A program made the translations under genes and the position numbers. A stretch of DNA of 64,000 nt from Vermamoeba vermiformis (Eukaryota), in NCBI GenBank assembly GCA_045837725.1, contig JBEWZL010000101.1:372001-436000 (forward strand), written 5' to 3'. This document shows, one piece after another, positions 16,241 through 64,000 of the stretch. Below the pieces are notes generated by a model. That model saw only the letters and a program-made list of their open reading frames with translations. It made no database searches and was not told the origin of the DNA. How positions within the stretch are numbered: the stretch's first letter is position 1; the number at the start of each line of letters is the position of its first letter.

Positions 16241-16454
16241 ACCGCCAGTATCGGCCGGGACGCAGCAGCAGCCAGGAAGGACGCTATCGTTGTACAAAAT
16301 TTCCTTAAAATCGATTCAAAATATTAGTATAAAATTATAGTTTAATATGTGTGTTGTTCGTATTGATAAACATGCAATTTTATCGGAACTAGTCCGTTTT
16401 TAAAACCATTCTATCGGTACCCACAACTGACCATTAATAGATTAACCTAATTTA

Positions 16455-18466
16455 ATGGATATACTACCGCTCGATGTCTGGCCCTTAATTGTTAGTTTCA
16501 TGAATGCCAAAACAAAACGGCAGATGCGACTCGCAAACACAAAATGGTTCAATACTATCAAATATAATAAGTTTAAAATATTTTTTGCACGATCAAAGAA
16601 TATTCAAGCCATTGCAGAACGATTATCAAAATATTCTTGGCCGATCGAGATTCACTTTTTAAAACCCAAATTTGACAGACCATTGGACTTGATTAATAAT
16701 TTACCAATACTTACCAACCTCAAAAAAATATCGGCAAGTGATGTGGATGAAATCGAAGATATTAGCGCGGGCGCAATTGCAGCAGGCAATCGACGGAGGG
16801 ACCGAAACAGCGAAACGAGCGAGATTTGCAGAAATTGTATGTTCAGTTCGAACATTGAATTAAGAACGAACACCACAACTCATATTGGTTATTAAATTTT
16901 TATTTTTATTTTGTATACTAGGTGCGTGTCTAGGCGTTCGTAGGGCCCAACCATCGATACGGGGGCTGTATGAACGAAATCTAGCACCTAGCCAATAAAC
17001 CTGAATTATCGCCCGCGAGTGTAGCGAGTTAAGTCCCGGCAGATCAATGGCGCCAACTTTCAACACTCACCAATATTGAACACTGGAAGCTTAGAGAAGA
17101 ATATTTACCACAAGATTTATGGCTAAAATTCACTAAATTGACTAAATGGGGAGTTACGTTACCCGACGAAGAACTTGTGCCGATCTTGAAGCGGATGACG
17201 AACTTAAATTCATTAAGCTTGTATTCCGAGGACTCAAAAACATGGCCTTTTGCACTCACATATAGCCCAGATAAATTAACAAGACTAAACATCAGCGTTT
17301 CAGAGAAGCAACAACATGGCAGTGAGATCTGGGCCTGTTTAACGAATCTGAAAGCCTTAGTTTATTCCGAGAATATTAACGAAGGATACAATGATATAAA
17401 GCTATCGTTTTTAACGGTGTTGACGATTCGTCAGTTAGATTGCAAAAAACTTCCGTCTTTAGCAAGAAACACGAATTTACAGCATCTGTCACTCTACTGC
17501 CAAAAGTGGTCCACAAGCAAAACTCACGATTTATCAAATTTAAAAAATCTGCGAATATTATCGATAGTTTACCCTCGTCAACAAAAGCCTGTTCAATTCA
17601 ACTTTTTGGTGCAACTGCTACAACTCGAAAGTTTCGCAATCACGGCCTCGGATATGACAACAGATGTGTCAAATGCATCGGATGTATTATTTCAGTACTT
17701 GCCATATTCTTTGAAGAGACTAAAATCGGATCTTGATTTGGATGTGGTCAAAATTACGCATCTGACAAATTTGGAAGAACTCGTTCTATACAAAAATTGC
17801 ATTAGTAATCAACACTTGACAGCGTTATCAAATATGACTCGTTTAGTTGTCGATCAAAATAATGTAATGCAAGATTGGAAAGTTATTGGAAAATTGACGC
17901 GATTAATCGAGCTCGATTTGGCATGCACTTCCGACGAAGACGAAAATGTTGACGATAATGTACCTGATATATCAAGTTTAACCAACCTTATTACGTTACG
18001 TTGGACATTGAACGAGTTTCCCATCCACAAACTTGCAGCGGTGGCTTATTTGACAAAGCTAGAAGAATTGTTTATCTCTGCGCACAACGAATCAGATCCA
18101 TCATTTGTTAATCAATCCGACTTTTTATCGATATTAACAAATTTGACACGACTATCATTACAACTAAAGACTAGCGATAACACATTATGGCAAAACATTG
18201 CAAAATTGACGAATATCGAATCGCTCAGTATACACTACGTAGATCACGATGATAGATTATTGACATTAACAGCGTTCAAGAATTTAACTGAATTGACCAT
18301 AACTTCTGCTGCGAAAGAATTTACCGGCCAGCATTTTACTGCCTTAACGAATTTACAAGACATTTATTTTCGAGGTGATAGTACTCAATTGGTGCATAAG
18401 AACGAAGACTTGAGGAAGAAAATGCCTTATTTGTTAAGGTATTCGTACTTCGTTCCTTTAGTGTAA
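16455..18466 (+). pseudogene. F-box/LRR paralog of the 11563 gene interrupted by a 272-bp insertion (pseudogene, or rescued by splicing)
   Basis: Colinear with the 11563 protein up to ..EIEDIS(A) at 16766 and again from ADQWRQLSTL at 17039. The intervening 272 bp has no counterpart in the paralog and shifts the frame. Confidence 0.8.
16767..17038. mobile_element. Short (about 270 bp) insertion of unknown origin
   Basis: Absent from the paralog. GC-rich ends (CGGG...CCCG), possible 1-2 bp duplication, and an internal GTATGT...poly-T-TAG intron-like segment. No long TIRs seen. Confidence 0.55.
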
Positions 18467-18502: not shown

Positions 18503-19859
18503 TTATACGAACAAAATTAATACTGAAAGTACAAGACAATAGGTGAACGATATTAAAGCACTCGCTGAGCTTGTTTTAGCATCGGGACTGGAGATCAATG
18601 TTGGCGATCCGACAGGTACAGGCAAGCCACATACGTTGTTGAAGCAAATATGTGTTGAGCAATCTGATCCTGAAGAGCAGGCCTTGCCATCGATGCACCG
18701 GGCTGCACACATGGATCCGCCACAATCGACATCCGTCTCGTCAAAGTTTTTCACGTTATCTTGGCAGCTGTCTTGAGGAGCCATAATAATGCCGTAGTAA
18801 TAGTGTGTGTCGGTACTGTTGAACCACAATGAACCATTTGTAAGGCCGTTAGTCTCATCAAAAGTGAATTCATGAATGAAGACGCCAGAGCCGTCAATTT
18901 GCGCCAGAATTTTGCCTTCTTCAACAACGACGAGCTGAACTATCTCTCCAACATCGCTATTTGCATAGACCCGTTCGTGCGTAGTTTTGTTGAATACGTA
19001 GAGACCAGTAGGGTAGTTTCCAATAGTGAGGTAGTTGGCCGAGAACTCAAACGCATTGGTCGAGTAGCTCTCGTTCAAAAATATCGTGGCGTTGCTTAAT
19101 GTAGTTGGCAGTCCTTCGCCAATTTGAACAATAGCAGCCTCCAGTCCGTCGTAGTTTGACGCGTAGAGATTTCCTTCGTAACTTCGAAGCGTAAAAACTG
19201 CGCCTAAGAAGACTAATTCGGACGTGTTGGAGCTGAGCGTAGTGTAGTAAACTCGTCCCGAAGTTGAGAACCATACGTCCTCGCCATCTAGAATAGCATT
19301 ATATACAGTTGAAACTGTTCGGTTGTCGGCGTCGAATGGGGCAGTGGTTTGGATCAGACCGTTTCCGTGGATCACGGCGAAACTTGTCAAGTAGTATCCA
19401 GCCGAAGTTTCAGTGACATTAATATAGTTGCAACAAGACATAATGGCGCGATATCCGTCGTTAGAAACCGTTAAACGGCTAGAATAGTCGTCGTTATAAA
19501 TAAGACACGGATGTGTTCCGTTGCTAGTAAAAAAAATTAAAATTTAAAATTTACGTCGATTGAATAGGTCATATAATACTTACACTTCTTCGGTAGGCAG
19601 CGCAAATTCTTGCACAATTTCTCCCGTTGGAGTAAGCTCTGTCAAGTAGCCCTTTGTACACGCTTGTTCGGTCAACTCTACAATAGCAATAAGTCAATAC
19701 GTGCATAGTATAATATTATACTAAGCATTGAGTTTACTTACGTATCTCTGCTTTGACAGCCAAAATATTTCCTTTCGTGAATGGCGCGCATGACACTGCC
19801 AACGATACCACAGCCACAATAAAGGCCACATTGAAAATCAAACGACTTGAAGTTGTCAT
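18503..19859 (-). CDS. Secreted/GPI-anchored-type surface protein with beta-rich domain and Cys-rich DETDVDCGG module
   Basis: Signal peptide MTTSSRLIFNVAFIVAVVSLAVSC; many N-x-S/T sites; CQDNVKNFDETDVDCGGSMCAARCIDGKACSSGSDCSTHICFNNVC; S/P/T linker; hydrophobic C-terminus SSASALISFTYCLVLSVLILFV. Confidence 0.8.
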
Positions 19860-22418: not shown

Positions 22419-24030
22419 ATGAAACGACGAACTGATCAACGGGAGACGGAAGACTCAGATCAAGAACTAAAAAAATCTAGATTGACCAATTTCCACGTAA
22501 GATCGCTCTTATAATATTTGCCATTCATATCATAATTTATAACAATTTTTGAAGGATTTTCTGATTGACGATATCATGAAAATTATTTTCTCGCTTCTGG
22601 ATGAGACTTCTCGAAGACACGTTCGTCTTGTCTGCACCAAATGGTTCAATCATATCAACTACTCGGTATTCAACATTGGAGCTATTCTGCCATCAGAGAT
22701 TGAAGAAGTGGTTCGAGTGTTTGGTCGATACAACCAACAGATCGAGCTTCACTTCAAACAAAAGAGCCCCGTGCTACGTAAACCAAGACAAAAAGAAGAG
22801 TATCAACGAGTTGAAGAGCTGTCAAAGCTGACGAACTTGTCTGCGCTAACCATGGACGGCTTTTACTATCATCAGTATCTGGCTTTTACGAATTTAACAT
22901 CGCTAAAGAGTTCCACAATTGGCGATCCGACGATGAAAACCCTCACAAAGTTAAAGAAAGTAGTGGCGGACGATATTTATTGCGATAGCACTGTGAATTT
23001 GGCTCAATTAGAAGAATTGTCGCTTACTGGCCAGTGCAACTTTGGCGGCAGAATTATTGCTCGAGCATTGAATGTCAAACACTTGACATTACTCAAAACA
23101 GACTACCCTAATTATTTAGGAGCAGGCGATACTTATTGCAAAGAAGATTTTAGACTATTGACGAAGCTTGAATCATTGACGGTGGATGACATGCCGATCG
23201 CGTGGGATCAGCTGTCAACAACTTTGACACGTGTCATCGTAATGTCCAGGCAGGAATGGAGTGGCACCCAGCACGCTGTCTTTCAATCGACAAACTTGAC
23301 CAATCTTCGGCACTTATCTATTCAAAACAACCTTGATAACTTGGAGATTTTTCCTTATTTGGAAAGTCTGTCCTTGAAAAACTTCAATACCTTATGTCAA
23401 CAAATATCCTCTTTATCGCACTTGACATCATTGAAACTCAGTCAATTTCCTGTTTTAGATGCATCGATGGATTTAATCAGCGAATTGATTCAACTTTGCG
23501 AGCTTGAATTGAAACCCTCTCCCACTTACCTAAAGGCATTCGATATGCAATATTTCCAAGAATTAACGAATTTGACTTCATTAGAAATGCCATTGACAGT
23601 CAGGCCGAGAAATATTGACACTTTGACACGATTGACAAGGCTTCAGACATTAACTCTCAAACTTGAAGACAACAAAACAGATTTTCTGTACACGCTGACA
23701 AATCTTACAAGACTAGATATACAATATGACGAGTCAAGTATTCCCTTAAACTTAAAGTCATTGACGAAGCTTCATGAACTTTCCACGGAAACGGAGAATA
23801 CTTTCACTGGCTTTGACACCTTGGCAGCGCTAACAAAGCTCATATTTCAGCAAAAAATCAAAGACAGTGACAGCCATTGGCATAATATATCAAAGTTGAC
23901 AAATCTTATTGAATACATCGAAGTCGGTGGGTTCGTTTCCCAAACGGATCCAGATCGGCTGACACAACTGATAGTTTTCAAGCACTTGACAAGATTAACA
24001 ACCGCTCTGTATTGTACGGCAAGACCTTAA
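22419..24030 (+). CDS. F-box/LRR protein with short basic first exon; C-terminus appears truncated
   Basis: Exon 1 MKRRTDQRETEDSDQELKKSRLTNFH, intron, then DFLIDDIMKIIFSLLDETSRRHVRLVCTKW (F-box) and LTNL repeats. Ends about 50 aa earlier than the paralog at 25276. Confidence 0.85.
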
Positions 24031-25275: not shown

Positions 25276-27058
25276 ATGAAACGAAGGCAGAGCCACATTT
25301 TAGAAGCTTCACCCGAAGCTGATCGACCAAACAAAAAGTTAAAAACCAGTGATCAATCAAATTTCCAGGTAATAATTAGTTTTATCAATTCTCATATTTG
25401 ATTTACCATATTTAATATTTTTGAAGGATTTTCTGATCGATGACATCGTGAAAATTATTTTCTCATTTCTGGATGAGACTTCTCGAAGACACGTTCGTCT
25501 TGTCTGCACCAAATGGTTCAATCATATCAACTACTCGGTGTTCAATATTGGAGCTATTCTGCCATCAGAGATTGAAGAAGTGGTTCGAGTGTTTGGTCGA
25601 TACAACAAGCAGATCGCGCTTCACTTTAAACAAGAAAGCCCAGCTTTTTTTGGCATGAATAGCAGCGAACCATTATTACCAACAAGAGACCAGTCAACAA
25701 TAGAGCCATTATCAAAATTAACCAATTTAGTGGCATTATCAATACCTCACTTTAATGACGCGTTTTTCGTGTTGACTAATCTCACCGCGCTCAAAAGTCT
25801 GAACAGAATTCAATGCAGCACACTACAAACATTCACAAAATTAAAGAATTTGACAATAGGCTTTATTGACGGTGATTTATCGACCAATTTACCGCAACTA
25901 GAGGAACTGTCAATTACGCAGAGCGGAACTAATGGTGCACGACTTGCGGAAGTAGCTCCGAAACTGAAACACGTGACGCTATTAAACTGTGCTTATGAAA
26001 CGAAACTTCCAAGAGATAACTGTACCTTGCCTTCGCTAGAGTCATTATACGTGGACAAATCATGGGGCTCATTCGGTGACTTACCTGCTTTGACACGTGT
26101 CACAATTGAATTTGACAGTTTAAGCTTTGCGCGCCATCGAGTGGGACATTTAACGAACCTTAGACATTTAAATATTGGAGACAATATCAAAGTGGCAAAT
26201 TTTCCTTATTTGGAAACTTTATCATTGTTCTGTAGAAAACCGAAGCACGTTCAACAGCTGACCCAACTTCAACACTTAACATCATTGTGTCTATTCTATG
26301 GCACTCTTTCACTAAGTGAGTTGCACGTCCTTAGCAAATTGACTAGTGTTCGTAATCTGGAACTTCAACCGACATGGTATAATAGCAATGGAGCAATGGA
26401 TCTGGCCTTCATTAGTGCTCTAACGAACTTAACTTCATTCAAAATAACACTCCCAAGATATGTGAGTGGCACTGATAGCTTGAAATATCTAACAGCGTTG
26501 AAAGAGCTGGAGTTTGAAAGTCTTGGCAGAATTGTCGACGGATTCGTTGACAGCTTAACAAACTTGACAAAGCTAGATTTACGATTATGGCAAACACCTA
26601 ACTATACACATAATTTGGGTAATTTAACGAACCTAATTGAACTTTCGTTAAAGACCTACAACCTGGATCGAACACTCAGCAATAATTACAGCGGATTCGA
26701 AAATTTGACGCAGCTAACGAGACTCACTTTTGGTAGTATTGTTGACGATACGCATTTGAATAGTATTTCAACGCTGACTAAGCTCAAAGAATATGCTGAA
26801 GATGCTGGATTTGACACAAGGACGGATCGTGATCGACTTTCACGATTGACAGCTTTCAAACATTTAACTAAACTCGTCACTGGATCAATTCTGGATATTA
26901 ATTATGATTATATCACCTCATTAACGAAGCTGCAAATACTGAAATTATTCGGAGTTGATAACAAACTTTATTCCAAATTGACACTATCTTTGCCGTTTAT
27001 AGCGCAACAAGATAATACTCCGCTCAGTTACTTGGTTGAAACGTCTAATAAATATTAA
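25276..27058 (+). CDS. F-box/LRR protein with short basic first exon
   Basis: Exon 1 MKRRQSHILEASPEADRPNKKLKTSDQSNFQ, intron, then DFLIDDIVKIIFSFLDETSRRHVRLVCTKW and a long LRR region. Confidence 0.88.
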
Positions 27059-27281: not shown

Positions 27282-30200
27282 TTATTGGATACTAGGACTT
27301 ATGCTAGTAGGTTCTTTCCGACACATTTTAATTTGATCAACAATTTGGCTCGCCGATGGTCGTTTTTTTGGATCTTGTTTGCAACAGTCCATAAGAAGCT
27401 GCCGCAACTTTGTATCTTTAAACTTTTCATTAATTTTCTTAACACGTTTATCTTCGCTACTGCTCGGTAATAATGGCTCTCCGGTAAGCATTTCAAAGAG
27501 CACAACGCCGAACCTGACCAAAAAAAATTCTGAGAATTTTTTCGTTGATGAAATATTTAACTTACGAATATATATCACATTTCTCGTCGTATGGGTCTTG
27601 GCTTAATACTTCAGGGGCCATATAATTGAACGTTCCGATAACATTAACAGTTTTCTTTTCGAGTTCTTTAGCTGTTCCAAAGTCCGCAATTTTTGCTCGT
27701 CGGCCATTATAGAGCTAAATAATGAATTAATAAAAATAAAAATAAATAATTTTGCATAGAAAATATGTTACCAGAATATTTCCGGTTTTGATGTCTCGGT
27801 GAATAACTTTCGGCATCCTTGAGTGCAGGTACATCAAGCCCTTAGCGACATCAAGAGCGATCTGCATTGAATCTGGTATTGACAACGTTGATTTTTTCTT
27901 CAAAAAATCTTCGAGAGAACCGTCCTTTAAGTACTCCATGACTAAAACCACGTCCGCTGTGTTTGGATCAATTGAAACTCCGTACGACACAACGATATGC
28001 TTGTGACGAAGCCGCCTAAAAATCAAGTTAAAATGCTGTTTGACATTTTGACACTTTATGGGAGAAGTTTGAGCGGCGTGAAAAATATTATGACACTTTG
28101 ACACGTGTCACTTTTTTTGCTGGAGTTTCACTTACGTAAGAGCCTCTGCTTCCTCCGCGAATATTGTAATGTTAGACATTTCACTTCCGTCTTTCATTTT
28201 TTTCAGCGCTACGTTTTGTCCGAGCCATTTGCCTTTGTACACTTGGCTGAAACTTCCCGCACCAAGTGCCATCTTGCGATCAATTGTGATCTGCTCGAAA
28301 GGAATTCCTTTAAACTTGTTAATTGGTGTATGATTAATATAAGTTATTTATAGTGTTCTTACCTGATTGGCTATTAACGACATTTCTCACGACGTTATGT
28401 AGCAAAGAATTAAGTTGTTGTTTTAACGCTGCATTTTCTTGCTCGTATTGAGCGATTTTAGTCTCCAAACTGTTCCATTTCAAAAGACTTAGCGACTGTG
28501 CTGTAATGAATTTGTTGTTTGCGGAGCTCGCGAATTGCATTCTTGACACGTGACACACGACATCGATGCGCCAGTATTGTTCGACAATGATGAGATTTAG
28601 GCACGGCATTTGCGCCGCACTTGTGTTTGCAATAATATTCATCTTTTTGATCTTTTTCATGAATTCAAAGTGCAGTAGTTGATCGGCTTTGAGACTGGTC
28701 ATGCCAAGTGTCAAAATGTCAAATGTGACGAAGATATTTTTCTCTTTCAAGATCTTCGATTGGAATAACTTCAACTGAGTTTCTAATTCTAGCTTTGTTA
28801 AGACTTTTGGATCGCATTCAACAGGCACTCCTTGCGTGATAAATTGACCTGAATCTCGCAACGCCAGATCTATATCTTCAATGGATAAGACATATGCTTC
28901 TTTCGCTTTTGATATAATGAATGCATCACTCAAAAGTTTTTCGATATCTGCAGGAGCGAGATCTCGGTCACGAATTCCTGACTTGCGCTCTCCGGCTAAT
29001 TCTTTTCTGCAACCTAAACGAAATTGTTACTTTTGACACTGTTGACACTTTGACACTATAAACAGATTTGAACTATTTCAGTGAGCCAAAAAATGAGGCC
29101 TAAAGTACGCACCAGCAAGTCGCTCGGCAAGTTTTTTAACGCTTTCTGCAGTCAGATTATGTTCGTAACTTTGTAGCAGCAAAAGCAGCATGTAATTGAT
29201 CATAGACGGCGATGAAATCTTCGGCCAGGCAATACGAGCGAATTTTTGTTCTTTAGAATTGTCAAGTACGATATTTGAAGTTGCTGTAGAAACATAAAAT
29301 CAACTAGTTAGAAAATAATTATCAACTACTACTGAAATTAAATTCGTACCTAGAACTATAATAGAGCCGGGAGTAATATTGAATTCATTAATGAGCCTGA
29401 AAAATTCCCGAATGCTTTTCTGTTGTCTCGGATCATCGTGCTGAATGAACATTTTTTCCACGTCTTCGATTAAAATTGTTATTTCTACGCCTTCTTTTTC
29501 GTGAGCAATTTTCGCGAAATTAAATAAAACTTTTGGATTCAGTCCCTATAGAAACATAAAGGACGGTCAAAAACTTTGACACCTGTCATTCAGAGTGTCA
29601 ACACCATTTACCTTGTTATCAGGATGAAAATCAGCAGGTGATAGAGCTATGTAAGGCCGGTCCATATTTTGCACTGTTAATGGCGTCAGTTTAATAAACT
29701 TAAAAAAAAAATCGACTTCCGTCGAAGCGTACTTAAAAGTTTAATAGCCATACTTCCCTAATAAAAATATTAGAATATATAGTTAAATTTTGTAGTGTAT
29801 ATACGTACTGGTCTGTATAATAAGACACTAGTTGGATATCGACCCTCGTTAAATCCACCTTCGAACCAGGCAGACAACATCATCGCATTTACATCGGCGA
29901 TTAATCCTTCAGCTCGCGCATTTTCCTGCGTAAACATATTTGCAATGACTAATTCTTCTTTGGAAGTAACGCATCGGAGTAACTTTTCTTGTAATGCAAA
30001 TTGAGTCACCGTGTCTTTCATGAAAACTGACTGACAGTATCCTGCGTACACTTCTGGCGCTATTTTTTTCGAGGAATAATTAAATAGCTGTTCTTTGATT
30101 GTATTTTGTTTTTCTATCCTTGCTGCATCTGATTGCGAGAGTTTGTCGAGATCGAATTTAATCAGTGCATTTGTTTCGATTGAAAGAGCCTTCATTATTT

Positions 30201-31464: not shown

Positions 31465-32509
31465 TTATTTGTTCTGCTGTACTAATTGAGCAAGGTACTC
31501 GCTGACAGAGATCGGCTTAATGTGAGCGTAGAACGGGTCAGTTAAGTTATCGAGCGGGCTTAACGCCGCACCGTTAGTCTTCAAAATGAATTTTTGAGCT
31601 CCGAGCGAGAATTTTAACATAGCGTTGTCGGTGGCTTGGATTTGTTGATCGAGTGACTCAAGCGTGGGCACGTTCTTCTTCCATTCGGAGCCTAAGTAAA
31701 ACATATTAATAACTGAGCATAATATGCCTAGTGGAAATCCCTCAAAGAAATATTGTGCGTACAAAATTGGATCCGCTTGGATCACGCATGTTTCAAGACT
31801 TACCGGTCAATTTCTCGAGTTGAGCAACGACATCATTCCATTTAAAAGTCTCGGCACCGAGTCTGACTGTCTTGTTCTTAGTATTAGGGTTCAACAGGAT
31901 CTCAGGCACGAGTCGGGCAATGTCGTCAGTGTGAATGGCTGTCATGACTGCGTCGCCGTACAAATTGATTGATTGCTCTTTAACGTTGACGCCAGCGAAT
32001 GGGCTGAACAAGTTGTCCATAAACGGGTTATTAACGACGAAAGTGTAGTCCAAGCCGAGCTTGTGGATCTGCTCTTGGGCGGCCTTCTTCAAATCCCAAG
32101 TCACGGTCTGACCCTTTGGCATAGCCTCGGTGTCGTTACCAAATTCAGAGGGAATAATGCGTTTGACCTTCGAGTAAGCCGAGGCCTCGATAAGATTGGG
32201 CTGCAATCCAAGAGCTTCTTTGCCGACGACTGAAATGACGACATCTACTCCTTGAGTAGCCTACAAAATCGTCAATAATTATGAAAATATTTTTAAATTT
32301 GTACATACCTTCTTGAGAGACTCTACATCGCTAAGATCGCCTTCCACGATTTTGGCTCCCTTGGATTTGAACTCGTCTGTTTTTGGGCTTGGTTTTCTAG
32401 CTAGTACAAGAACTTCAAATTCCTTCTTTGCCAAAAATGCGTCAGTAATTTTAGCTCCGAGGAAGCCAGTAGCTCCGGCAATTAAAACTGTTTTGAGTTG
32501 GGTTGACAT
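31465..32509 (-). CDS. NmrA-like / isoflavone-reductase-like NAD(P)-binding protein
   Basis: TVLIAGATGFLGAKI, VEGDLSDVESL, QPNLIEAS..VKRIIPSEFG, TDDIARLV. Confidence 0.9.
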
Positions 32510-32864
32510 CTGATCGGATCTTGTCTTAGATTCGTTTCTGTTTCTGTTGTGTTGTAATGTGTATGACCACGTTAAATAATATAATGAACTGCCGTGAAAA
32601 TTTTTATGGTTAGTGCTTTGTAATCGTTGAGAACATTCTGTGCGGGACCGAATATTCTCACCAGGGCTAGGAGACAACGGGATCCTAAAAAGGAAACTTC
32701 TCGGGCGAAAGTTACGAGCACCAGATATTTCCAGTACATTCGCAGCGATGAGAACCATCTGGAGGAAACCGATAACAAAAATAGTTCTATTTATTTACCT
32801 TGTCAGATTCGAATCTCCAAAAACTCGATCCAACCCTCTGTTGAGCTTAAAGTCTAGAATCTAG

Positions 32865-34725: not shown

Positions 34726-37700
34726 ATGAAATTTGTAAGTACAAAGAACGGAGCTCAGATCGTTTGTTTCTAAAGCAAAATCTTTTCGATAATATCGACT
34801 TTTCTGTGTAGAAACACTCTGCTATTTTTATTAATTTTTTTCTACCAGTATTGCCTGGGGCAGAATCCATACGCGAGCTGTTACTTGATCCAGCTCAAAA
34901 ATATTTCAATATTATTGGACTGTGGATTAGAATTAGTATCATTACTTAACTTCGAGCCATATTTAACCGAGCCGAGCCATGTCAGCAAAAGTAATGGAGA
35001 GTCAACGGATCTTAAAAACGAAAAATCAGATGAAGGCTCCTCGTCAATTTTAACGAAGCACGGGCAGAATATATACATCAACGATACAAATCTAAAATTT
35101 CAAACGCCTCAATTTAATTTATTCGACATGGCTATGGTAGATCTTGTTCTCATCTCGAATGTTCATAGTCTCTTGGCTTTACCATTTTTAACCGAGCATT
35201 GCCCTGGATTTAAAGCTAAAATATATGCCACGGAACCAACTAAATACCTCGGCAGGTAAGCGTACAAAGTTCGAAAGCAAATCCGACTTACTCTTCGTTT
35301 TAGGCAACTTCTACTCGAGTTAGTTAGCTATATGAATACACTACAAACATTACCCGTTAAGCAAGCTCAATTTGATGTCCCGATTTGGCAGCGTATGGGA
35401 TTTCAAGAGTACGTACCATACATCGAATCCACTGGCGAAATTTATAATGGCTCTAGATCAATATGAACTTATTATAAGCTTTTTGTTATAGTTCGCTATC
35501 GGATCAATTGAAAAGTCAACTGCCTTATTTACTTCAATGGCAGAAATTGTACAGCGCCGCAGATGTAGAATCGTGCATCGCTAAAATTCAATCCGTCAAT
35601 TACTCGCAACAAATTGTAAGTGTATACCATATCCTATATTTATACATGGAGATTCTGTCACCTCTAAACCGGGCTTTCGGACCTGATAAATTTATTTATC
35701 GGATGTGCACCCCCTAACCCAAAATTATCGCTACAGTTTATATGACGCTAACAATCATTGTTGTAGAAGGTATTTGACTCGCTAGTGGTGTCTCCGATAA
35801 GTTCGGGTTATCTATTAGGTAGCGCTAATTGGATCATCAAAACTATGAACAAAAAAGTATGTCATACTTAACCTCATACATAACTAATGAGATTGAATAT
35901 TAAATAGATTACATATTTATCGGGGTCATCGATAAGTGGCAACAAGTAAGTATAAATTCATCTAAATTAATCTATGTCAAGATAAAAGAAATTCCGAGTT
36001 TAGAAACCCATTTAATAAGATTCTGTTGCTAGACATAGCACCTCCTTTGATATGGACAAGATTAACAACAGTAACTTGCTCATTGTCACGAATGGATCCA
36101 CGCAAAAAGGACTTAGTTTCGATTTTGCCTTGAACGATTTTTGCAATCAAGTCGGTATGTACCGCACACTACTCGTTCATAAATACCCTCTGCAAATATC
36201 GCATTTGCAAATTGAATAGAACTAATTATAGAATTTTCCTTATTTAGGTTTGACGGTCTCGAGTGGTGGCAATGTTTTAATTCCGTGCTTGGCCACGGCG
36301 CTGGTGTTCGATTTATTCGAAGTTTTGAACAGTTATTTGACCTCTATGAACATGACTAATGTGCCTATATACTTCATATCACCTGCGGCAGAATCTTTAT
36401 TAGCGTATTCGGATATCATCTCTGAATGGCTTAATAAGGCAAAGCAAGAGAAAGTTTATTTGCCTGAGCCTCCATTTTATCATAACGAACTCGTTAAAAA
36501 TGGCAGAATACGTCATTTCCCTAGTATAGTCGATTCCAAGTGAGTAGAATTGCACCTTAAATGCAACAAAATTAACTCCGAACAAATGTCTCCTCTTTTC
36601 AAGCACGTTTTTATCTTTATCAAATAAGAAATTGATATTAATTGTGCTATTTAATAGGTTTACAAGCTTTCAAGAGCCTTGCATAGTCCTTACTGGTCAT
36701 CCTTCGCTCAGATGTGGTGACGTTACACACTTGATCCAAACGTGGAAGAAAAATGACCGGAATGCTATTGTATTCATCGGTATGTTATTTATGAATACAA
36801 TTCGTATTATCATATCATAATGACCTCTCAATTCGAAGTTTATTCACTCAATTTACCCGATCTATTTTTAAACAGATCCGCACTATGATTGGCTCAAAGC
36901 TTTGGCGCCCTTCGAACCTATAAATATGAAGATATATAATTGCCCGCTAGATAGTCGTTTAACGTCCACAGTAAGCATTTATCAGCCTTTAAAGAACTCG
37001 TGCCAAGTGTCAAACAATTTCCTTTTTAGGAAATTCACACAGTGATTACAAAATCGAGCGCCGAACGAGTTCTTGTTGCAGATACTATTGCAACTGATGC
37101 TATACCCAAGCTGGAAGGCACCAAAGTGACAACTTTTCAACATCTGGACGTGGTATCTGTAGATCTGCATAGAAAGACGCAGGAGTGCTATATCAGTCAG
37201 GAGGTAAGCCAATACTATAATTATCTAGCTTGCGTAACGAGAAACAAATTTTAAGCGAATTCGGGATCGAGTTGCGTTAAGTAACGCCAAGATTTTCCGT
37301 AACGCTATTATTATCTACGGCCTTTATTGCTTTAAATAATGCGAGCACATACAAAATCTCTTGTTATTTAACTTGACGTGTACCGCTAAACTCAGATTTT
37401 TCTTAACGTTATTTATTTCCGTTAAAGCTCAAATTGCTAATTATTCCTACTTTGCGGTACAGCTTGCTAGTAAAATTAAAGCGATTAATGTTGGCCAACA
37501 AACAATCGCACCCGTATACGGAGTTCTGTCACAGAAGGATGGAAAGATGACTTTGGAAGCTCCCAAAAATAGCAGCGCATCCGGATCAGAAGTCCAGAGA
37601 AAACGAATGCTGTGGGGATCGCCAAAAGTGGAAGAATTCGTTCGGAAGATCGCTGAAGTAAGTATAATTTTGCGCACGAGATGAATTTATATAAATATGG

Positions 37701-53511: not shown

Positions 53512-54645
53512 CTAAGCAGGGATCACCTGAAGCAATCCCATGGATTGCATGCCTCTTACGGCGTCTTCGTAACGGGTGGCACTGTAGCCGGTCACGGTCT
53601 TGACGTCCGGTGAAGGCGTAGCAAAGGTGCCGTTGCGCATCAAGTCATGCCATTCGACGACGCCTTCAGCCTTCACAATGTGATTAGTAAGGATCGCTAA
53701 TATAGTACAATAGAGAGCTTACCATGTACTGGGGCGAGCTTCTCTTAAGAATGTTGATGAACTCTTGACGATCAACTTTCTTGTCGATGATTTGACGACC
53801 AAGAACTTTGGACAAAACCTGCAAAAGTCATTAGAATTGCTCATGAAATGATGTCCAAGCCGCACGTACTTTGCCCTTTTCGGCAGCTGCTACTGGCTCA
53901 GGACCAGTTAAGTAGTAAGACTTGTTCTTGAACTTGTCGTGGTTGAGAAGCGCAGCCGCGGCACATCTTCCAACATCATCGGACCACAACGGACAGAAAG
54001 TTCCATTTGGCTCGATATAGGGAGCAAAGCTCTGGTTGATGATCTCTTCTTTCATCGATAAAATCAAGTCCTAAAAAGGAAAAAGTAAGCAAATGTCTAA
54101 CAAACTTGACACGTGTCAAACTTACGAGCATAGGACCGAGTCTAAGGAAGCAGTATGGGATACCGCTTTGCTCAATCTTCTTCTCACCAATTCTGAACTC
54201 TTTTCCGAGAATGGTGGTATCGGTATCAGCGCCGTAAGAAGATCCAAAGACGAGGAACTTGACTGATCCGATCTGCTTGACCTCGTCAACGAAGTCACTG
54301 ACCCATTTCATACGATCACCTTGCTTCATCGTCTTGTCGGGTCTTGGAGCAGTAACCCAGACGCGCTCAACATTCTGGGAATTTTACGTGAGTTTCATGA
54401 TTTTGAAACGGATCTTCGAAACTTACCTTCAATGCGGCACGCATGGATGTCTTATCCTTAAAGTCCATTCGAATAAGCTCGATGTTGGATTCTTTGCCAA
54501 ACAGACGCTTCAATTTCGCTTCATCATGAGAGGCAGCTCGGAGAACGTAATCTTTCGGAGGAGATCGGAGCAAATGACGCACGACGGCAGAACCAGTGTT
54601 GCCAGTAGCACCAGTGATAAGAATGACAGGCTTGTTATTGTTCAT
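53512..54645 (-). CDS. NmrA-like NAD(P)-binding protein
   Basis: ILITGATGNTGSAVV, EKKIEQSGIPYCFLR, DDVGRCAAAALL..YYLTGPE, SPDVKTVTG. Confidence 0.9.
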
Positions 54646-54962
54646 TGTGGTATCGAATTAGTTGTTTTGATGATTGATGAGATTACTAGATTTTTAGATC
54701 CATTTTATATTTTTTGTCTGAAATCAGGCTGAGATTACCGAGTTAATACTACGCAAAAATTTAGCGGCAAATTATAGTGATATAGCAACGCACCTAATCA
54801 AGTAATATTTCAGGATCGAACATCGATAGCTGTTAAATAAGTAATTAGAAATTCCGGTTGATCTACGCGTTACAATCGATCAGTTGAAATAAATATGATT
54901 TTCATTGGTTATATTTAAATAATACATTTTCATTAGTCTGTACAAAAATGAGTTTTCTTGCC

Positions 54963-57900
54963 TTAAGATGAAGATGCGCCTGTTGTTGACGGACTTGATC
55001 CCGACGAGCTCGATCCACTATCAGAGGATGACCTGTCTTCTTCTTCTGGAAGCTCATGAATAGTACTATTATTAATATTCATAGAGGCCATGGCAAGGTT
55101 ATCTTTTGACGGCATTCCTTTGTATTTGGTTCCTTCTTGCGATCCAGGCTGCGAAGCATTTTTCAAATTCGTACTTGTATCGATTGCTGAATAAGGACCT
55201 TCGGCGCTTGAACTACTAGGTGGTGCGTCTCCGTAAGTAGATTGCGGAGGTTGTTCTTCCATGTTCACGGCGGATGTGCCGCGCAGATCTTCTCCCATTT
55301 CTTCGTTCAAAATCTCGACGAGTTCTTCGAAGGTCGGTCTATCCTTAGGGTCCTGCAAATATGGTTTAATGCACTTGCCTAATAAGGAAATCGAGTTTTC
55401 GTGAAGACTTACGGGAGCCCAACATTTGAGCATTAAACTCTTCAAAAATTCGTCCTCGCAAGTTGAGATGTCTGGATGCATGTTGATCTCACGAATTTTC
55501 AATGCCAATTCTAGCAAGTCCCAGCCTTCATAGGGCTCGCGGGCGTATATCATTTCCCTATTGACACGAGTCAGTACATGTATCTCGAGCGGAGATTTTA
55601 TGTCATAAAGTACGTACCACGCAGTAACACCAAAACTCCACACGTCAGATTTGTTACTGTATTCTCTCGTCATTAAGGACTCAGGTGACTATATAATACG
55701 TTAGTATATGTATTTGATATTATTGTTGAAGAGACGTACCATCCATTTGACAGGACCGATCGTGTTGAGAGTTTTACCAGTATTATCGATACCGACGATA
55801 CGCGCCATACCAAAATCCTATAAAATTATCGCAAGTAAGTAACTGAGTATCAAATAGATAAATTTGTACTTACAGAAATCTTTGGGACACCTTGATCCGT
55901 CAACTAAAAATTAAATTTGTTAGAATTATTATAACATGTTTTTTAAGTATATAATTAATGTAGCTTGAGCGTAACGTACCAAGATATTTCTGGTGGCCAA
56001 ATCTCTATGAATGACGTTCTGTGAATGCAAGTGAGACATGCCGCTAGCAATACCGCGTAACAAGTTGCGAATAGTTTTGCCGTCCAAAGAGTAACTCTTC
56101 AAATAGGTCTCCAAACTGCCCTTGCTGCAGTACTCCATGACCAAATGGAACTTTTCTTCGTGCGTGTAAACACCGAAAAGTTGGACGATGTTTGGATGCG
56201 GTCGCAGCTCACTTTAAAACACATTAGATATGGAACTATAAGTATTTTTTGTAATATATACGCTTAAAAATTCATTTTCAGTGGATGTGGTCTTAAAAGG
56301 AAAGAAATAAGTTAACAATAATTCTCAGAAAAAGCTCTTGTATTAACACTACTTAAATACTTACGCCATGACTTGAGCTTCTTTAATCATTTCAGCGCTA
56401 GTCTTGCTAGACTCATTCTGCGTTACTTTGACGGCCACCTCCGTAACTCGATTCAATTTGCCTCTCCAGACCACACCAAACGAGCCCTGACCGAGCTTAG
56501 TGAGCAATAAGACGTCGTTGGGCGATAACTCCCAGCGATTGGATTTGTTGCTGCCATTGGCAACAACGTTTTCAACACCTGGAATCGGAACGGAGACTAA
56601 AATTCCAAATTAGGAAATGGCTGCAATATTCGAGAAGAGGGTCATATATGGATCTTACCATAATTGGTATCTTCGAGCGGAAGTTCATCGTCTTTCTTTT
56701 GATTTTTCTTTTTCTTCTTTTTCGGTTTGACGACCACGAAGAAAACGATCAAAAATATTCCGACGCCAACGACCACAGCAATAGGAACAACTATGGCAGC
56801 AATTATTCCGCCGGTTAGACCCTGAGGTGTCGCAGTCTCATTCTTTCGCGAGAAAAGAATTCCATCCAATGGCTGAACGCTCCAAAGTGCTTCAATGGCG
56901 ACGGAAAAATTCGCGGAATAACTCTCGGGGGTGCCCAAGCACACTTTTTTCAGGCACGTGACGTTAATGAGCTCATCAAATGATGGGTCGTAGTTGGGAA
57001 AACCGAAGAATGCACCAGTGTCAAATTGCGTATCTGTGTTAGGCACAGCCGTCTTCAACAACACGTCGTAAAAGGACTTACTTCCGGAGTCAGTCCAGAA
57101 CTGCAAAATGATCACGTGATTAGTTTCATGAATGAATATGATAGTGCCCGGCAGTCTCGTCAAATTGATATGCCTGAGCTTATAATTAAATAAATAGGAT
57201 GAGTACGTACGGTAGTGCTGCCACAGGTCTCAACGCATCTAGCGTGCGCACAGGTCACGGAGTCTAACGAAGGAGCAAGATGTGTGAGTTGATTTAAATG
57301 GCCAATTGGTACGTAGGCTGTGGGACATTGTGGGGCCCTATTAAATACGAAATTTAGTTTCGAATATCGGGCTATTAAAAGTTTTGGATCTCATTAAATT
57401 GGCTGAAATTAATTGAGAGTATGAAATATAAATGAAAATTACCAAAATCCTCCATCGAGCCTAGCGTTACTGTTCGCGTCGATCCAGATCTGGGCATAAG
57501 ACAAGGGGGACGCCAACAAGGGTTTGTGACTAGGATATCTCGGCAATGCAGAGTCTGCTTCAATCTCCTTTACGACTGTATTGAAACATCGGTGAGTGCT
57601 GTAAGAAAGTATACAAAAGTATATCGTAGCTTACATTCTAAGTTCAAATTGAAGCTTGCGGTGATGTTACACGCGTCACCGGTACGTTTGTAACCATCAA
57701 ATTCGTCGTACCTCCAGCACGTTATATTTGTATCGACTGGACTACCATACGACGCCCATAAAGAGGTGAAGCTCGCTAACAAAAAGATTAGGATCCAGAT
57801 CTTGACAAATTGATTTGATTAATTTTTACCTGGTTGAACTGGTGCAGTTTGAAGAGTGTTGTCAAAGCCAAGGGAGCTATTCATATACGTTTGTAACGCG

Positions 57901-59454
57901 GTAATCATGTTTTCTCTAATAGATCCGTCTTCGATTAAGAACACGTACGGATCCAGTTCTAGAGCAATCGGCATCGGATTTTTTTCTATGGATGTTTTCC
58001 AAAGAGCATAATTTGTCGATTTATCGCCTCCCACGGCTAAATAACAATTTTGTTAAGTATTTTTTTCTAGCGAAAAAGATCCAGTACGCGCATATCAAAA
58101 ACGAATCAAAATTCTCTTCAACTAAGAAAATACTATTGCTTACCATATAAACTGACACTAATACCAATGCTAGTCAATTTCTGGTAATCCGTACTGGCAG
58201 TTTCATCGCTAATCGAATACGCAAATCGCGCCGCAATTCTCATAGCATTTAAAATGTCCGTAGAAGTGTTGAGCAATTGTCCGCGATTGAAGAAAGGTAT
58301 ATACGCAGAAGCTGTTATTCTTCCTCCAAAAGTTGCGTTTCTGACGTAATGAGTTCCGTATTTGGTAATAAAATTCAAGTAGTCGTTGTAATTGTAGCTC
58401 GTGGGTAAGGCTTTAACGTCGTCCATAAATGACTGAGAGAGGTTTGCGCGAAGCATTGAGGCTTTGAATATTGCAATTTCGGCTAAAAATGTAACGAGGT
58501 CAGTTCGTGCGTACATTGGTCTTTACAAAAAGGTGAATTTTAGGTTATATGTGCGTAGTGTAACAAATAATAGAATATTTTTAAAGGTCATATTAATTTT
58601 ATATTGTCATTGTGCTACTTACCGCTGCTGGTGTAAACCGTCGATCCCAAATTCATAATATTTCGGCTAACCATATTAGTATATCCGTTATTGCCAAATC
58701 CAACCTATCAACGTTATGTAAGTACTCGATATACTCAATATTCAGGAATGAATTTTGCGTTCACGTACTTCTGGAGCTAAATCCACGATAGTGACATCTT
58801 CCAGCAACCTCATACTAAACTCTCTGCGATAAATTATGTTAGAAAGCATTCTAAATGAAGAATTAATTGTTTCTTTCGGTGCTTTTCGGAAGTAGTGTCC
58901 GGTCTTGGTGACACTTCGACTCACAACGACACGGATGTACCATGATTTAAAATTTGCTGGATTAAAATACACCGAGTATTTACCTAGGTGTCCTTGCCGT
59001 ATAAAAGTTAAACGTATTGTTCTCGAATGAGAGAGTTTCGGTCGGAGTCCCGTCGGTTGTAGATTCGATTTCGTAAATTAACGCTTTATTCCACGTTAAG
59101 GATACTATAAAATATAAAAGTAAATATTATCACTTACTTATATAATATAATATCATTACAAATACTAATTCTTAATTAATTGTTCATGATTCAAACTTAA
59201 ACAGATCCCGCGTTCAAAAATCGCGTGAGTGCGTTGAATTATTTTTAATACTTACAATCGTCATCGCTTGTTGGTCTTAGATCACCTATATTTATTGTCA
59301 TAATTTGTAAAATTAAGAAGGCTTGTTTCAATTATTTACCGGTCACCAGATCAAATCCACGACCAATGTACGTGTAGACATTTTGCAGTTGGACCTGAGC
59401 AAGGCACACTTGCACTAATATACAAACTACCACTAGCGTGTATAAATATCGCAT
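54963..59454 (-). CDS. Single-pass receptor tyrosine kinase with extracellular MACPF domain
   Basis: Signal peptide MRYLYTLVVVCILVQVCLA. MACPF: YIGRGFDLVTG, LSQSFMDDVKALPTSYNYNDYLNFITKYGTHYVRNATFGG, VGGD..WKTSIEKNPMPI. TM GIIAAIVVPIAVVVGVGIFLIVFFVVV followed by poly-K. Kinase: LGQGSFGVV, VAVK, HRDLATRN, DFG, GPVKWM/SPE, SDVWSFG. Confidence 0.88.
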
Positions 59455-62551: not shown

Positions 62552-64000
62552 ATGGAGCAACTTAAAGATCAGATCAGAGAGCAAGGAGAGGCTTTGCGAA
62601 AACTCAAAGCTAATAATCCAGAATGGCATACAGATAAGAAAATCTTAGAGCATATTTGGAATTTATTGAATTTGAAGAGCAAAGACCCAGCTTTGAACGA
62701 AGAAGTCTTTGGAACTGACAAGGTAAAATAAATTTAAAATCTCAGTTCAGAAAATATTTAATTAAATTTAAAGACCGGCAATATGATAAATATATTAAAT
62801 TAAATCGTGGCAGCATAAATTTAATATTTTTTTGCATTATTTTAGCCAGCGAAGCAAATCAAGATCCGTTGGTACGTCGTAGACGACAAGAAAAACAAAA
62901 TTCGCTATCAAAATGTATTCAAAAACCGTACTTTTGTCACGGGCAAAGAAGTAATCGCTTCAATCAACAACTATATGCACTCCCTCGTCCAACGAAAGAA
63001 AGACCAACTTCCAAAGCACGTGACGGGAGATTTCGTTAAAATCGAACACGTGTCCAGACCCGTCGCTAAGGCGGCAAAGGTCTTGCGCTCAATTACAGAA
63101 GAAGACATGTTCAGATTGCCTGCAGTCTTCCCTGGTCCTACGTTACAGCCTGAAACAGTCATAGAGTTTAAGGTCACTTTCCCTGGCCCTGCTTATCACT
63201 TGACCACGCCTGAAGCATATAACCTTCATAGACCCGAGATCGTTGACGCAGGTACGTAATGACGGCAATACTTGATATTTCTGAAGCTCGATCTGATCCG
63301 TGTAAATGTAGGTGTTAACTTGTTCGAGAAAGTGTTGTACAAGAACGTCGATGCAGTCATTGCACGATCATTTGCAGCTGGTGTATCTCAGAGTGTACTG
63401 ATTTCAATTGACGCTCAAACTAGTGCCACGTCAGTCGAGATCTGCAAGAAACATTTGCAAAGCTTGTACGCAACGGCTGGTGTCCATCCTTTGTATATTG
63501 GCAATGCTCCAGTAGCTCGCGGAGACGAAGAGGAGAAGAAACAGATTGAAGAGGATGAGAAGGCCCTGCAGTCCGCGCAACCTGAGGGTGCTGAAGCCAA
63601 CCCGAAGGCCGAAGAAAGTAACAATAGCAACGAGAAGCCTAAAGAGAAGGACTTGAAGACTGAATTGAACGCCATCACAGCTCTCATTAAGCACAATCCC
63701 GAGTATGTCGTCGCTGTCGGTGAGATTGGCTTGGACTTTAAGGACAACTTGGCACTTGGTAAGTTGAATTCAGATACTTTTACGCTCGTAAGCAGGGATT
63801 GACGAGCTATATAATAGAGTTGAGAGAGACGCAAAAAGTGTGGTTCGAAGAGCAACTCAAGTTAGCCGCTGAGTTGAAGTTGCCCGTGTTAATTCACGAG
63901 CGTGAAGCTTTCAGAGAAACGATTGACATCCTCCGAAAGTACAGATCTCAGTTACCAACCGTCGTGATTAACTGCTTCACTGGCTCGCAAGAGGAAATGG
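62552..64000 (+). CDS. TatD-family nuclease with N-terminal WHEP-like domain (3' end beyond window)
   Basis: N-terminus LKDQIREQGEALRKLKA. TatD motifs IVDAG/VNL, YATAGVHP, VAVGEIGLDF, FEEQLKLAAELKLPVLIHER, VVINCFTG. Confidence 0.85.

Follow-up and report, generated by a model that had tools for sequence, protein, structure and literature searches.

Receptor kinases whose ectodomains have been exchanged by domain shuffling are known, and so are MACPF (perforin-like) proteins that are tethered to membranes or bear a beta-tripod domain. Here we describe a gene of the amoeba Vermamoeba vermiformis in which the two kinds are joined. It lies in a stretch of 64,000 nucleotides (contig JBEWZL010000101.1 of assembly GCA_045837725.1, forward-strand positions 372,001 to 436,000), which we call the window and number from 1 to 64,000; the gene is on its minus strand, and amino acid (aa) positions are those of the spliced product, the window protein. 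As read from its sequence, its product is a receptor kinase of type I that crosses the membrane once, with a pore-former-like module outside the cell and a tyrosine-type kinase inside.

The closest described systems each share a part of this arrangement. MPEG1 (perforin-2) is, like the window protein, a type I protein with a luminal MACPF domain, a membrane-proximal accessory domain, a transmembrane (TM) helix and a cytosolic tail, but its accessory domain (P2) is not a beta-tripod, and its tail, of <40 residues, is described as carrying no enzyme and as being regulated by ubiquitination (PMC7937864). The bacterial protein GNIP1Aa (PDB 6FBM, from Chromobacterium piscinae) has the same two domains as the outer part of the window protein, an N-terminal MACPF domain and a C-terminal partial Vps62 domain, since reclassified as a beta-tripod bearing the motif D-X-G-S/T-G-X3-D (PMC8624791) and described as a target-recognition domain (PMC8624791, PMC10683392). 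The Vps62 entry IPR009291 is also known as the beta-tripod domain, and in bacterial insecticidal proteins such domains are reported to recognise a cell-surface receptor before pore formation (PMC10683392). Unlike the window protein, GNIP1Aa is a soluble toxin of a bacterium, and its 536 residues include neither TM helix nor kinase. In Drosophila, the MACPF protein Torso-like is tied to signalling by a tyrosine-kinase receptor, Torso, but these are two separate proteins. Astrotactins resemble the window protein in being membrane-anchored MACPFs; both they and Torso-like differ from it in being described as without the tryptophan of the GGXnW feature, which is kept in pore-forming MACPFs and is absent also from BRINPs (PMC5483515).

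On the kinase side, VSK3 of Dictyostelium and PATMK of Entamoeba are single-pass, receptor-like amoebal kinases that take part in phagocytosis or phagosome maturation, roles like the one that we propose below; the accounts of them report no MACPF ectodomain, and they are set beside the window protein by description only. For Physarum, four kinases with all the tyrosine-kinase residues are reported, of which three have a single TM helix (PMC4758236), and seven protein tyrosine kinases with predicted TM domains are described from Acanthamoeba (PMC4053784). The main texts of these two papers do not mention MACPF or perforin, and perforin goes unmentioned also in the main text of a cross-kingdom survey of transmembrane kinases (PMC10463195). 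Our search of the literature found no description of a MACPF–kinase fusion. To our knowledge, only a few receptor kinases of the tyrosine type occur outside animals, and these are uncharacterised.

How might such a protein work? We suggest, with a probability of about 0.45, that it may be a contact sensor of a phagotrophic amoeba, the kinase of which would be activated through self-association of the MACPF domains.

A single gene for ectodomain and kinase

The gene occupies 59454-54963, from an ATG at 59454 to a TAA at 54965-54963, and consists of 18 exons in a single open frame of 989 aa; all 17 introns have GT..AG ends and are 51-160 nt long. The exons, all on the minus strand, are as follows.

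Exons 1-6: 59454-59340, 59285-59256, 59104-58984, 58823-58769, 58704-58623, 58482-58144
Exons 7-12: 58036-57830, 57775-57635, 57575-57443, 57337-57211, 57100-56659, 56596-56365
Exons 13-18: 56211-55980, 55903-55874, 55817-55740, 55688-55618, 55557-55413, 55352-54963

Two other acceptors were considered and rejected: 58850 for exon 4 (giving 998 aa), as 58823 is seen in RNA and agrees with the relative P0001 described below, and 58521 for exon 6, which is out of phase, the acceptor at 58483/58482 being confirmed by the RNA joint 58482/58623.

From its N-terminus, the product has a signal peptide, a MACPF domain, a beta-tripod (Pfam Vps62), a TM helix with a poly-Lys stop, a tyrosine-type kinase domain and a Ser/Tyr-rich tail. 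The signal peptide, the MACPF domain, the TM segment with its poly-Lys stretch and the kinase motifs had all been listed in an earlier, sequence-only reading of this DNA, and all were found where that reading had placed them.

59395-59454, minus strand: signal peptide (aa 1-20; cleavage after CLAQ, read by eye)
57849-59373, minus strand: MACPF domain (aa ~28-310, exons 1-7)
58360-58322, minus strand: MACPF signature YGTHYVRNATFGG (aa 176-188), of the form Y/W-G-T/S-H-F/Y-x6-G-G
56921-57773, minus strand: beta-tripod domain (Vps62, PF06101, IPR009291; aa ~318-510, exons 8-11), with three repeats and 8 Cys
~56812-56729, minus strand: TM helix (hydropathy peak 3.11 over aa 541-578)
56728-56696, minus strand: poly-Lys stop-transfer KPKKKKKKNQKK
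56668-56586, minus strand: juxtamembrane Tyr 597 (NYVSV), a sequence feature
55329-56525, minus strand: tyrosine-type kinase domain (aa ~622-868, exons 12-18)
56009-55986, minus strand: kinase motif HRDLATRN (aa 743)
55817-55809, minus strand: kinase motif DFG (aa 763)
55754-55680, minus strand: kinase motif PVKWMSPE (aa 784)
54966-55328, minus strand: C-terminal Ser/Pro/Tyr-rich tail (aa 869-989), with Tyr 900, 914 (GPYSAI) and 937

Four public sequencing runs, X5, X10, X21 and X23, were aligned to the locus. Contigs from X5 and X10, which are recorded as 'RNA?' under organism labels other than that of the window, are 95-99+% alike to the window and are spliced. At least 13 of the 17 predicted introns appear among the joints listed for them, with CT..AC ends on the plus strand.

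Joints on the kinase and tail side: 55351/55412, 55556/55617, 55688/55740, 55816/55873, 55904/55983, 56211/56365
Joints among the TM and beta-tripod exons: 56596/56659, 57100/57211, 57336/57442, 57575/57635
Joints among the 5' exons: 58482/58623, 58702/58767, 58823/58984

At 56596/56659 the TM exon is joined to the first of the kinase exons. For intron 6 there is a joint with two extra letters, and for intron 2 a 30-letter loose end at 59104, matched by eye to exon 2 with 3 mismatches. Between the window and the X5/X10 contigs 31 single-base differences are listed, with 31 more beyond the listing; of the listed ones, 24 are synonymous and 7 non-synonymous in the 989-aa frame, and this excess argues that the reading frame is a real one and not due to chance.

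When exon 6 was used in a search for longer proteins, a single match emerged among 366 candidates: a protein of 991 aa (P0001), for which the precomputed Pfam domains are MACPF, Vps62 and kinase. The window protein aligns with P0001 collinearly from end to end, with 698 identities in 1001 columns (70%) and no gap at any exon junction. The 90% cluster of P0001 has 15 members. Three of these (P0001, P0008 and P0014) are full-length open reading frames (ORFs) of 991 aa, and their contigs (5429, 3057 and 3022 nt, respectively) are too short for introns. Seven short members (152-166 aa), on contigs of up to 428 kb, match residues 451-597 of P0001 exactly, a segment that is the counterpart of exon 11 of the window gene (aa 451.0-597.3), and two members of 123 aa match residues 144-249, within exon 6. 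Genomic fragments of the P0001 type are therefore split at the same exon bounds, and its 3-kb contigs are spliced transcripts.

It might be supposed that the MACPF/beta-tripod part and the kinase belong to two neighbouring genes that have been misjoined in the gene model, or that the whole is a decaying pseudogene: no single RNA record spans the gene, the longest pieces covering 2-4 exons, and introns 1 and 7 have no joint among those listed. Such an artefact is, however, largely refuted, and we hold it to be highly improbable, in view of the RNA joint between the TM and kinase exons, the relative's full-length ORFs on contigs of about 3 kb, the gap-free collinearity of the two proteins at the exon junctions, and an open frame in which the listed synonymous differences outnumber the non-synonymous ones by 24 to 7. 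Ectodomain and kinase are thus parts of one spliced mRNA and not of two genes, because spliced RNA contigs, filed under organism labels other than the window's, are found together with a collinear 991-aa relative on intron-free contigs of 3.0-5.4 kb; the sequence-only reading, which had postulated one polypeptide from one transcript, was right in this.

The ectodomain as a two-domain, pore-former-like module

Pfam scans of single exons bear out the two domain assignments made previously, MACPF and tyrosine-type kinase. MACPF (PF01823; cut-off 21.5 bits) is matched by exon 6 alone at E 1.5e-14 (55.1 bits) and by exon 7 alone at E 3.5e-7 (31 bits), and PK_Tyr_Ser-Thr by exons 12 (E 9.9e-8), 13 (E 2.4e-22) and 17 (E 0.017); the corresponding matches of P0001 are at E 2e-22 (80.8 bits, residues 129-298) and E 2e-74. 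The IGRGFDLVTG start and the GG..W..PMPI end of the MACPF domain are both present. The GGXnW feature of the window protein reads GGDKSTNYALW (aa 250-260), and that of P0001 reads GGISGSNYVQW.

An AlphaFold2 model of the ectodomain was built for P0001, the relative and not the window protein itself, from a 55-sequence alignment, and reached a mean predicted local distance difference test score (pLDDT) of 84 and a predicted template modelling score (pTM) of 0.80. It has the MACPF fold, namely a long, bent central sheet (strands 53-63, 129-149, 179-196 and 244-249) flanked by the two helix clusters that correspond to the transmembrane hairpins TMH1 and TMH2 (residues 64-128 and 197-243). Whether these two regions are intact had been raised as a structural check, and in the model both are full length, some blocks of TMH1 being of low confidence. 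Superposition of the P0001 model with VIA-align on MACPF proteins of known structure gave the following scores (rmsd, root mean square deviation).

TgPLP1 (MACPF only): Z 19.5, rmsd 3.2 Å, 239 residues aligned
Perforin: Z 18.6
Mpf2Ba1: Z 18.3
Perforin-2 (MPEG1) pre-pore: Z 17.6
Astrotactin-2: Z 10.8

Because the GGXnW tryptophan is present, the helix clusters are of full length and the Z scores are 17-19.5 for pore formers as against 10.8 for astrotactin-2, the modelled MACPF domain looks pore-competent rather than developmental.

The region between the MACPF domain and the membrane, which the sequence-only reading took for a cysteine-containing stalk, proves to be a folded domain, and its 8 Cys are kept in P0001. 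In the P0001 model it is an all-beta domain (residues 308-502, pLDDT mostly >90), and the Vps62 family of Pfam is matched by P0001 over residues 380-503 (E 3.7e-7, 29.3 bits; cut-off 22.1); in the window protein, for which the scan was made exon by exon only, exon 10 gives 14 bits (E 0.017), which is below the cut-off. The PDB entry nearest to the module is GNIP1Aa by several routes. Chain 6fbm_A is the top match of a profile of the 55 sequences, with E 1.7e-52 over both domains (C6, TgPLP1, C9, perforin, MPEG1 and pleurotolysin B follow); it is also the best match of the single P0001 sequence, reached by way of the tripod repeat of residues 382-471 (E 8.3e-8), and it comes first in a Foldseek search with the P0001 model (E 5.5e-25). 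In VIA-align, residues 22-511 of the model and 11-523 of 6fbm_A superpose with Z 22.7 over 439 aligned residues, at 20% identity and an rmsd of 10.7 Å, the last figure indicating that the two domains are oriented to each other differently than in GNIP1Aa. The three-repeat, all-beta fold of the C-terminal domain of GNIP1Aa is matched by the model, and the domain that follows MACPF corresponds to the beta-tripod of 6fbm, not to the P2 domain of MPEG1; P2 remains unmatched, the MPEG1 chains aligning mainly over MACPF (model residues 10-306 for 6sb3, and 263-272 residues for the others). The whole ectodomain is homologous to the insecticidal pore-former GNIP1Aa and, with the supposed stalk recognised as a beta-tripod, therefore forms a complete two-domain module of the GNIP1Aa kind.

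These results are relevant to the view that the protein is an effector first, that is, a tethered pore former of the MPEG1/perforin-2 type that perforates ingested prey in the phagosome, its kinase controlling trafficking or reporting the attack. A type I topology with a luminal or extracellular MACPF domain, as in perforin-2 (PMC7937864), would suit such a role, as would the GGXnW feature and full-length helix clusters, the Z score of 17.6 to the perforin-2 pre-pore and the homology of the ectodomain to a real toxin. Perforin-2, however, has a tail of <40 residues and is believed to be released from its anchor by cleavage (PMC7937864), whereas the window protein has ~400 cytoplasmic residues, including a kinase that is 93% conserved in P0001, which argue that signalling is a main function; a P2 domain is lacking, moreover, and the alignment with MPEG1 covers the MACPF part only. 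For a protein of this build, we consider a primarily effector role unlikely.

Membrane segment, kinase and tail

Only two segments of the spliced protein are hydrophobic (aa 1-26 and aa 541-578). The ectodomain between them has 10 N-glycosylation sequons, with the 8 Cys in its membrane-proximal half, and a linker of ~35 residues connects the beta-tripod to the TM helix.

The set of catalytic motifs is complete: GQGSFG and VAVK are present, the catalytic loop HRDLATRN has the tyrosine-kinase form HRDL(A/R)(A/T)RN without Lys at HRD+2, and PVKWMSPE has the form of a tyrosine-kinase P+1 loop, P-(I/V)-(K/R)-W-x-(A/S)-P-E. Between DFG (aa 763) and PVKWMSPE (aa 784) there is no tyrosine, so that the activation loop differs in this from that of an animal-type receptor tyrosine kinase (RTK). 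An activation-loop tyrosine for trans-autophosphorylation is typical of RTKs, though not universal among them. Cytoplasmic tyrosines are found at 597, 690, 702, 711, 715, 798, 816, 821, 900, 914 and 937, and two of their contexts, NYVSVPIP just past the membrane and EGPYSAID in the tail, are kept in P0001. The exon-wise scan found no Pfam family in the tail (aa 869-989).

When P0001 was compared with PDB sequences, the best 60 of 2737 matches were all tyrosine kinases (E 1e-48 to 2e-70), among them an EGFR chain, a Src–Abl ancestor, Src and Abl. A search with residues 560-890 of P0001 gave 1302 matches, the best 120 of which were examined. The nearest among these, at 40-45% identity, have Kelch-repeat ectodomains and are unnamed proteins from JGI, 660-800 aa long; named relatives include a 'Tyrosine-protein kinase receptor' of Balamuthia and leucine-rich repeat (LRR) receptor-like kinases of Planoprotostelium, and EukProt contributes proteins of Echinamoeba (P0207), Protostelium and Cavostelium. 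The best-scoring of these relatives all have HRDLA(A/T/S)RN and GPxxWM(A/S)PE. The Kelch and LRR receptor kinases of Amoebozoa resemble the window protein in being single-pass proteins with an ectodomain outside and a kinase, 37-45% identical, with shared motifs inside, but the ectodomains of these relatives are Kelch, LRR or unassigned.

A quick FastTree phylogeny was made of 97 kinase domains chosen by similarity to the query and rooted on four plant receptor-like kinases (RLKs), 15 near-identical fish Src rows and domains of <220 residues being left out. The window protein and P0001 pair with support 100, within a 30-row clade (support 92) of Kelch, LRR and Balamuthia receptor kinases. An adjoining 39-row clade (support 99) holds all 19 named animal tyrosine kinases, and the amoebozoan and holozoan tyrosine-kinase clades are united with support 99, HRDLKxxN kinases and the plant RLKs lying outside them. 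This supports a tyrosine-kinase-type enzyme that would belong to an amoebozoan lineage, and gives no support to membership in any animal RTK family. The term 'receptor tyrosine kinase', under which the protein had been entered, is thus apt as regards the tyrosine-type motifs and the TM helix, but in the tree the kinase stands beside the holozoan clade, not inside it, and it has no activation-loop tyrosine.

A second, unrelated protein-kinase gene of several exons lies in the window at 27282-28347 (minus strand). It has 35% identity to the P0001 kinase (tblastn), and its motifs are of the Ser/Thr type (HRDIKTGN, GTFNYMAPE), in contrast to the tyrosine-type motifs of the receptor.

Relatives and conservation

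How widely is this architecture distributed? A HMMER search with residues 1-550 of P0001 against 1.84 billion representatives gave 838 proteins at E <= 0.001; among the best 150 of them, phmmer with the P0001 kinase detected a kinase in none, and conversely PF01823 is present in just 1 of the 120 kinase relatives examined, P0001 itself. When a word-based search was limited to the ectodomain, P0001 alone was recovered from 8000 scored candidates. A search of metagenome contigs with the P0001 ectodomain gave 71 pattern matches, none of which was confirmed, in a collection from which P0001's own contigs are evidently missing. Within the limits of these searches, then, the architecture is undescribed and is restricted to a single narrow lineage, made up of the window gene together with the P0001 cluster, and these counts, like the literature, are consistent with the original remark that no characterised protein was known to have it.

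The best ectodomain relative among the 150 is P0016 of Mastigamoeba balamuthi (EukProt), a protein of 547 aa with 27% identity over 502 residues (BLASTP E 9e-48) and with Pfam MACPF and Vps62 domains. P0016 and another protein of the same organism, P0031, share the MACPF and beta-tripod combination with the window protein; neither has a kinase. The named nearest relatives of the ectodomain and of the kinase are all amoebozoan, at 27-45% identity, so that similarity by itself points to a probable amoebozoan host; an animal host (sponge or rotifer), which the tyrosine-kinase motifs had suggested, was rejected on this ground. The C-terminus of P0016 is a short hydrophobic stretch (aa 528-547) that follows small residues and resembles a glycosylphosphatidylinositol (GPI)-anchor signal; if it is one, surface tethering of the module may predate the fusion to a kinase.

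The window protein and P0001 differ unequally along their length.

Kinase: 93% identity
MACPF: 68% identity
Beta-tripod (membrane-proximal): 60% identity
Tail: 60% identity

Two segments have the lowest identity, the second helix cluster (aa 211-270) and the third repeat of the tripod (aa 421-510), the TMH2 region being the least conserved part of all (33-43%). Judged from these comparisons and from the excess of synonymous differences, the gene is under purifying selection and exists in at least two diverged versions. A kinase 93% identical beneath a MACPF domain and a beta-tripod at 68% and 60% is what a recognition receptor would be expected to show, with a signalling module that is conserved and a recognition module that evolves fast.

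The divergence of TMH2 may also be taken as a sign that the MACPF domain no longer inserts into membranes, and that the ectodomain serves, in the manner of astrotactins, BRINPs or Torso-like, as a non-lytic ligand-binding domain, with ligand-induced dimerisation of the kinase and without ring assembly. MACPFs repurposed in this way do exist (PMC5483515), the ordinary Kelch or LRR ectodomains of the sister kinases suggest that ectodomains were simply swapped, and the beta-tripod motifs of the window protein are degenerate (WASYGSPVDTN, WIDANSNARLD and WTDSGSKSFYD, at aa 323, 394 and 452). Yet the GGXnW tryptophan and both full-length helix clusters have been retained, the fold is nearer to pore formers than to astrotactin-2, and alternating hydrophobic patterns occur at the same places in both diverged copies (weak evidence). 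A non-lytic ectodomain seems to us, on balance, somewhat unlikely; but even with an inert MACPF domain the gene would still illustrate clearly how ectodomains are shuffled within a receptor-kinase family outside animals.

A possible mode of action

We return to the contact sensor that we propose. The beta-tripod, and perhaps the MACPF domain, would bind a component of a foreign surface (prey or microbe) at the plasma membrane or in a phagosome, and binding would promote edge-to-edge self-association of MACPF domains, as in pre-pores. This would bring the cytoplasmic kinases together, and they could then phosphorylate each other's juxtamembrane and tail tyrosines, these sites being preferred in the scheme to the activation loop because the latter has no tyrosine; the resulting phosphotyrosines would recruit SH2 proteins. 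VSK3 and PATMK offer a precedent for receptor-like kinases that act in the phagocytosis of amoebae.

Several observations weigh against this scheme. MACPF rings consist of a dozen or more subunits, and the C-terminal tether might not allow rings to form. The structural evidence on the ectodomain comes from the model of P0001 and not of the window protein, and in that model parts of the TMH1 region are of low confidence (pLDDT 47-52 in blocks 61-80 and 101-110); scans for the amphipathic moment of beta-strands peak in the TMH regions but elsewhere too, and so are unspecific. The strict motif D-x-G-[ST]-G-x3-D occurs 0 times in the three tripod repeats of the window protein (it is found once in P0001 and twice in Mastigamoeba P0016), and for this reason the canonical binding site of the beta-tripod may have been altered or lost. 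Finally, X21 and X23, which are raw RNA-seq reads under the window's own organism label, contribute only 28 and 32 reads, respectively, at the locus, nearly all of them 90-95% alike to it. Many of these reads fall on a poly-A/T stretch and a part on the kinase; their differences are consistent and their intron positions unchanged, and they probably represent a diverged copy, for example one of the P0001 type. Either a diverged, P0001-like paralogue is expressed in that material, or the organism labels span different strains or species.

In a bolder version of the idea, assembly of a pore or pre-pore on the membrane of prey or of a pathogen would be weapon and signal at once, and the ring itself, each subunit of which would bring a tyrosine kinase to the same place, would trigger phosphotyrosine signalling for engulfment or phagosome maturation. 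We think this distinctly unlikely; if true, it would be a one-chain version of the two-chain logic that leads from a MACPF protein to an RTK in Torso-like and Torso, and an independent, non-animal invention of RTK activation by higher-order clustering.

The significance of the gene is in part separate from these possibilities, for it shows a non-animal receptor kinase that has recruited a whole toxin-type MACPF/beta-tripod module as its ectodomain. It raises the question of whether self-assembly of MACPF domains can act as a receptor-clustering device. If it can, this would link pore formers mechanistically with kinase signalling and provide a natural test case for the unresolved relationship between Torso-like and Torso. 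A second question that the gene raises is how amoebae recognise their prey, their phagocytic receptors being poorly known.

Other genes in the window

The receptor gene is closely followed by one of two NmrA-like/NAD(P)-binding genes, which ends ~300 bp downstream of the receptor's stop codon and so indicates compact gene spacing. Elsewhere, five long and apparently intron-free ORFs have similar N-termini, and LRR matches were obtained in two of the three that were scanned; beside intron-rich genes, this local array has the appearance of an F-box/LRR family that has expanded. An open frame of 346 aa that has no Pfam match may encode another surface protein, as it contains a stretch rich in Cys and is hydrophobic at its C-terminal end. 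Two further loci, fragments of a TatD-type DNase gene and a weak match to the metallo-beta-lactamase fold, are ordinary housekeeping genes.

53831-54657, minus strand: NmrA-like/NAD(P)-binding gene, next to the receptor gene
31793-32794, minus strand: second NmrA-like/NAD(P)-binding gene
6037-7323, minus strand: array ORF, LRR match only
11506-13266, plus strand: array ORF, no match in the Pfam scan
16446-18466, plus strand: array ORF
22543-24030, plus strand: array ORF
25376-27058, plus strand: array ORF, LRR and F-box matches
18503-19543, minus strand: 346-aa open frame
34774-35259, plus strand: weak metallo-beta-lactamase-fold match (E 8e-4, under the Pfam cut-off)
63263-63802, plus strand: fragment of a TatD-type DNase gene (E 1.3e-12)

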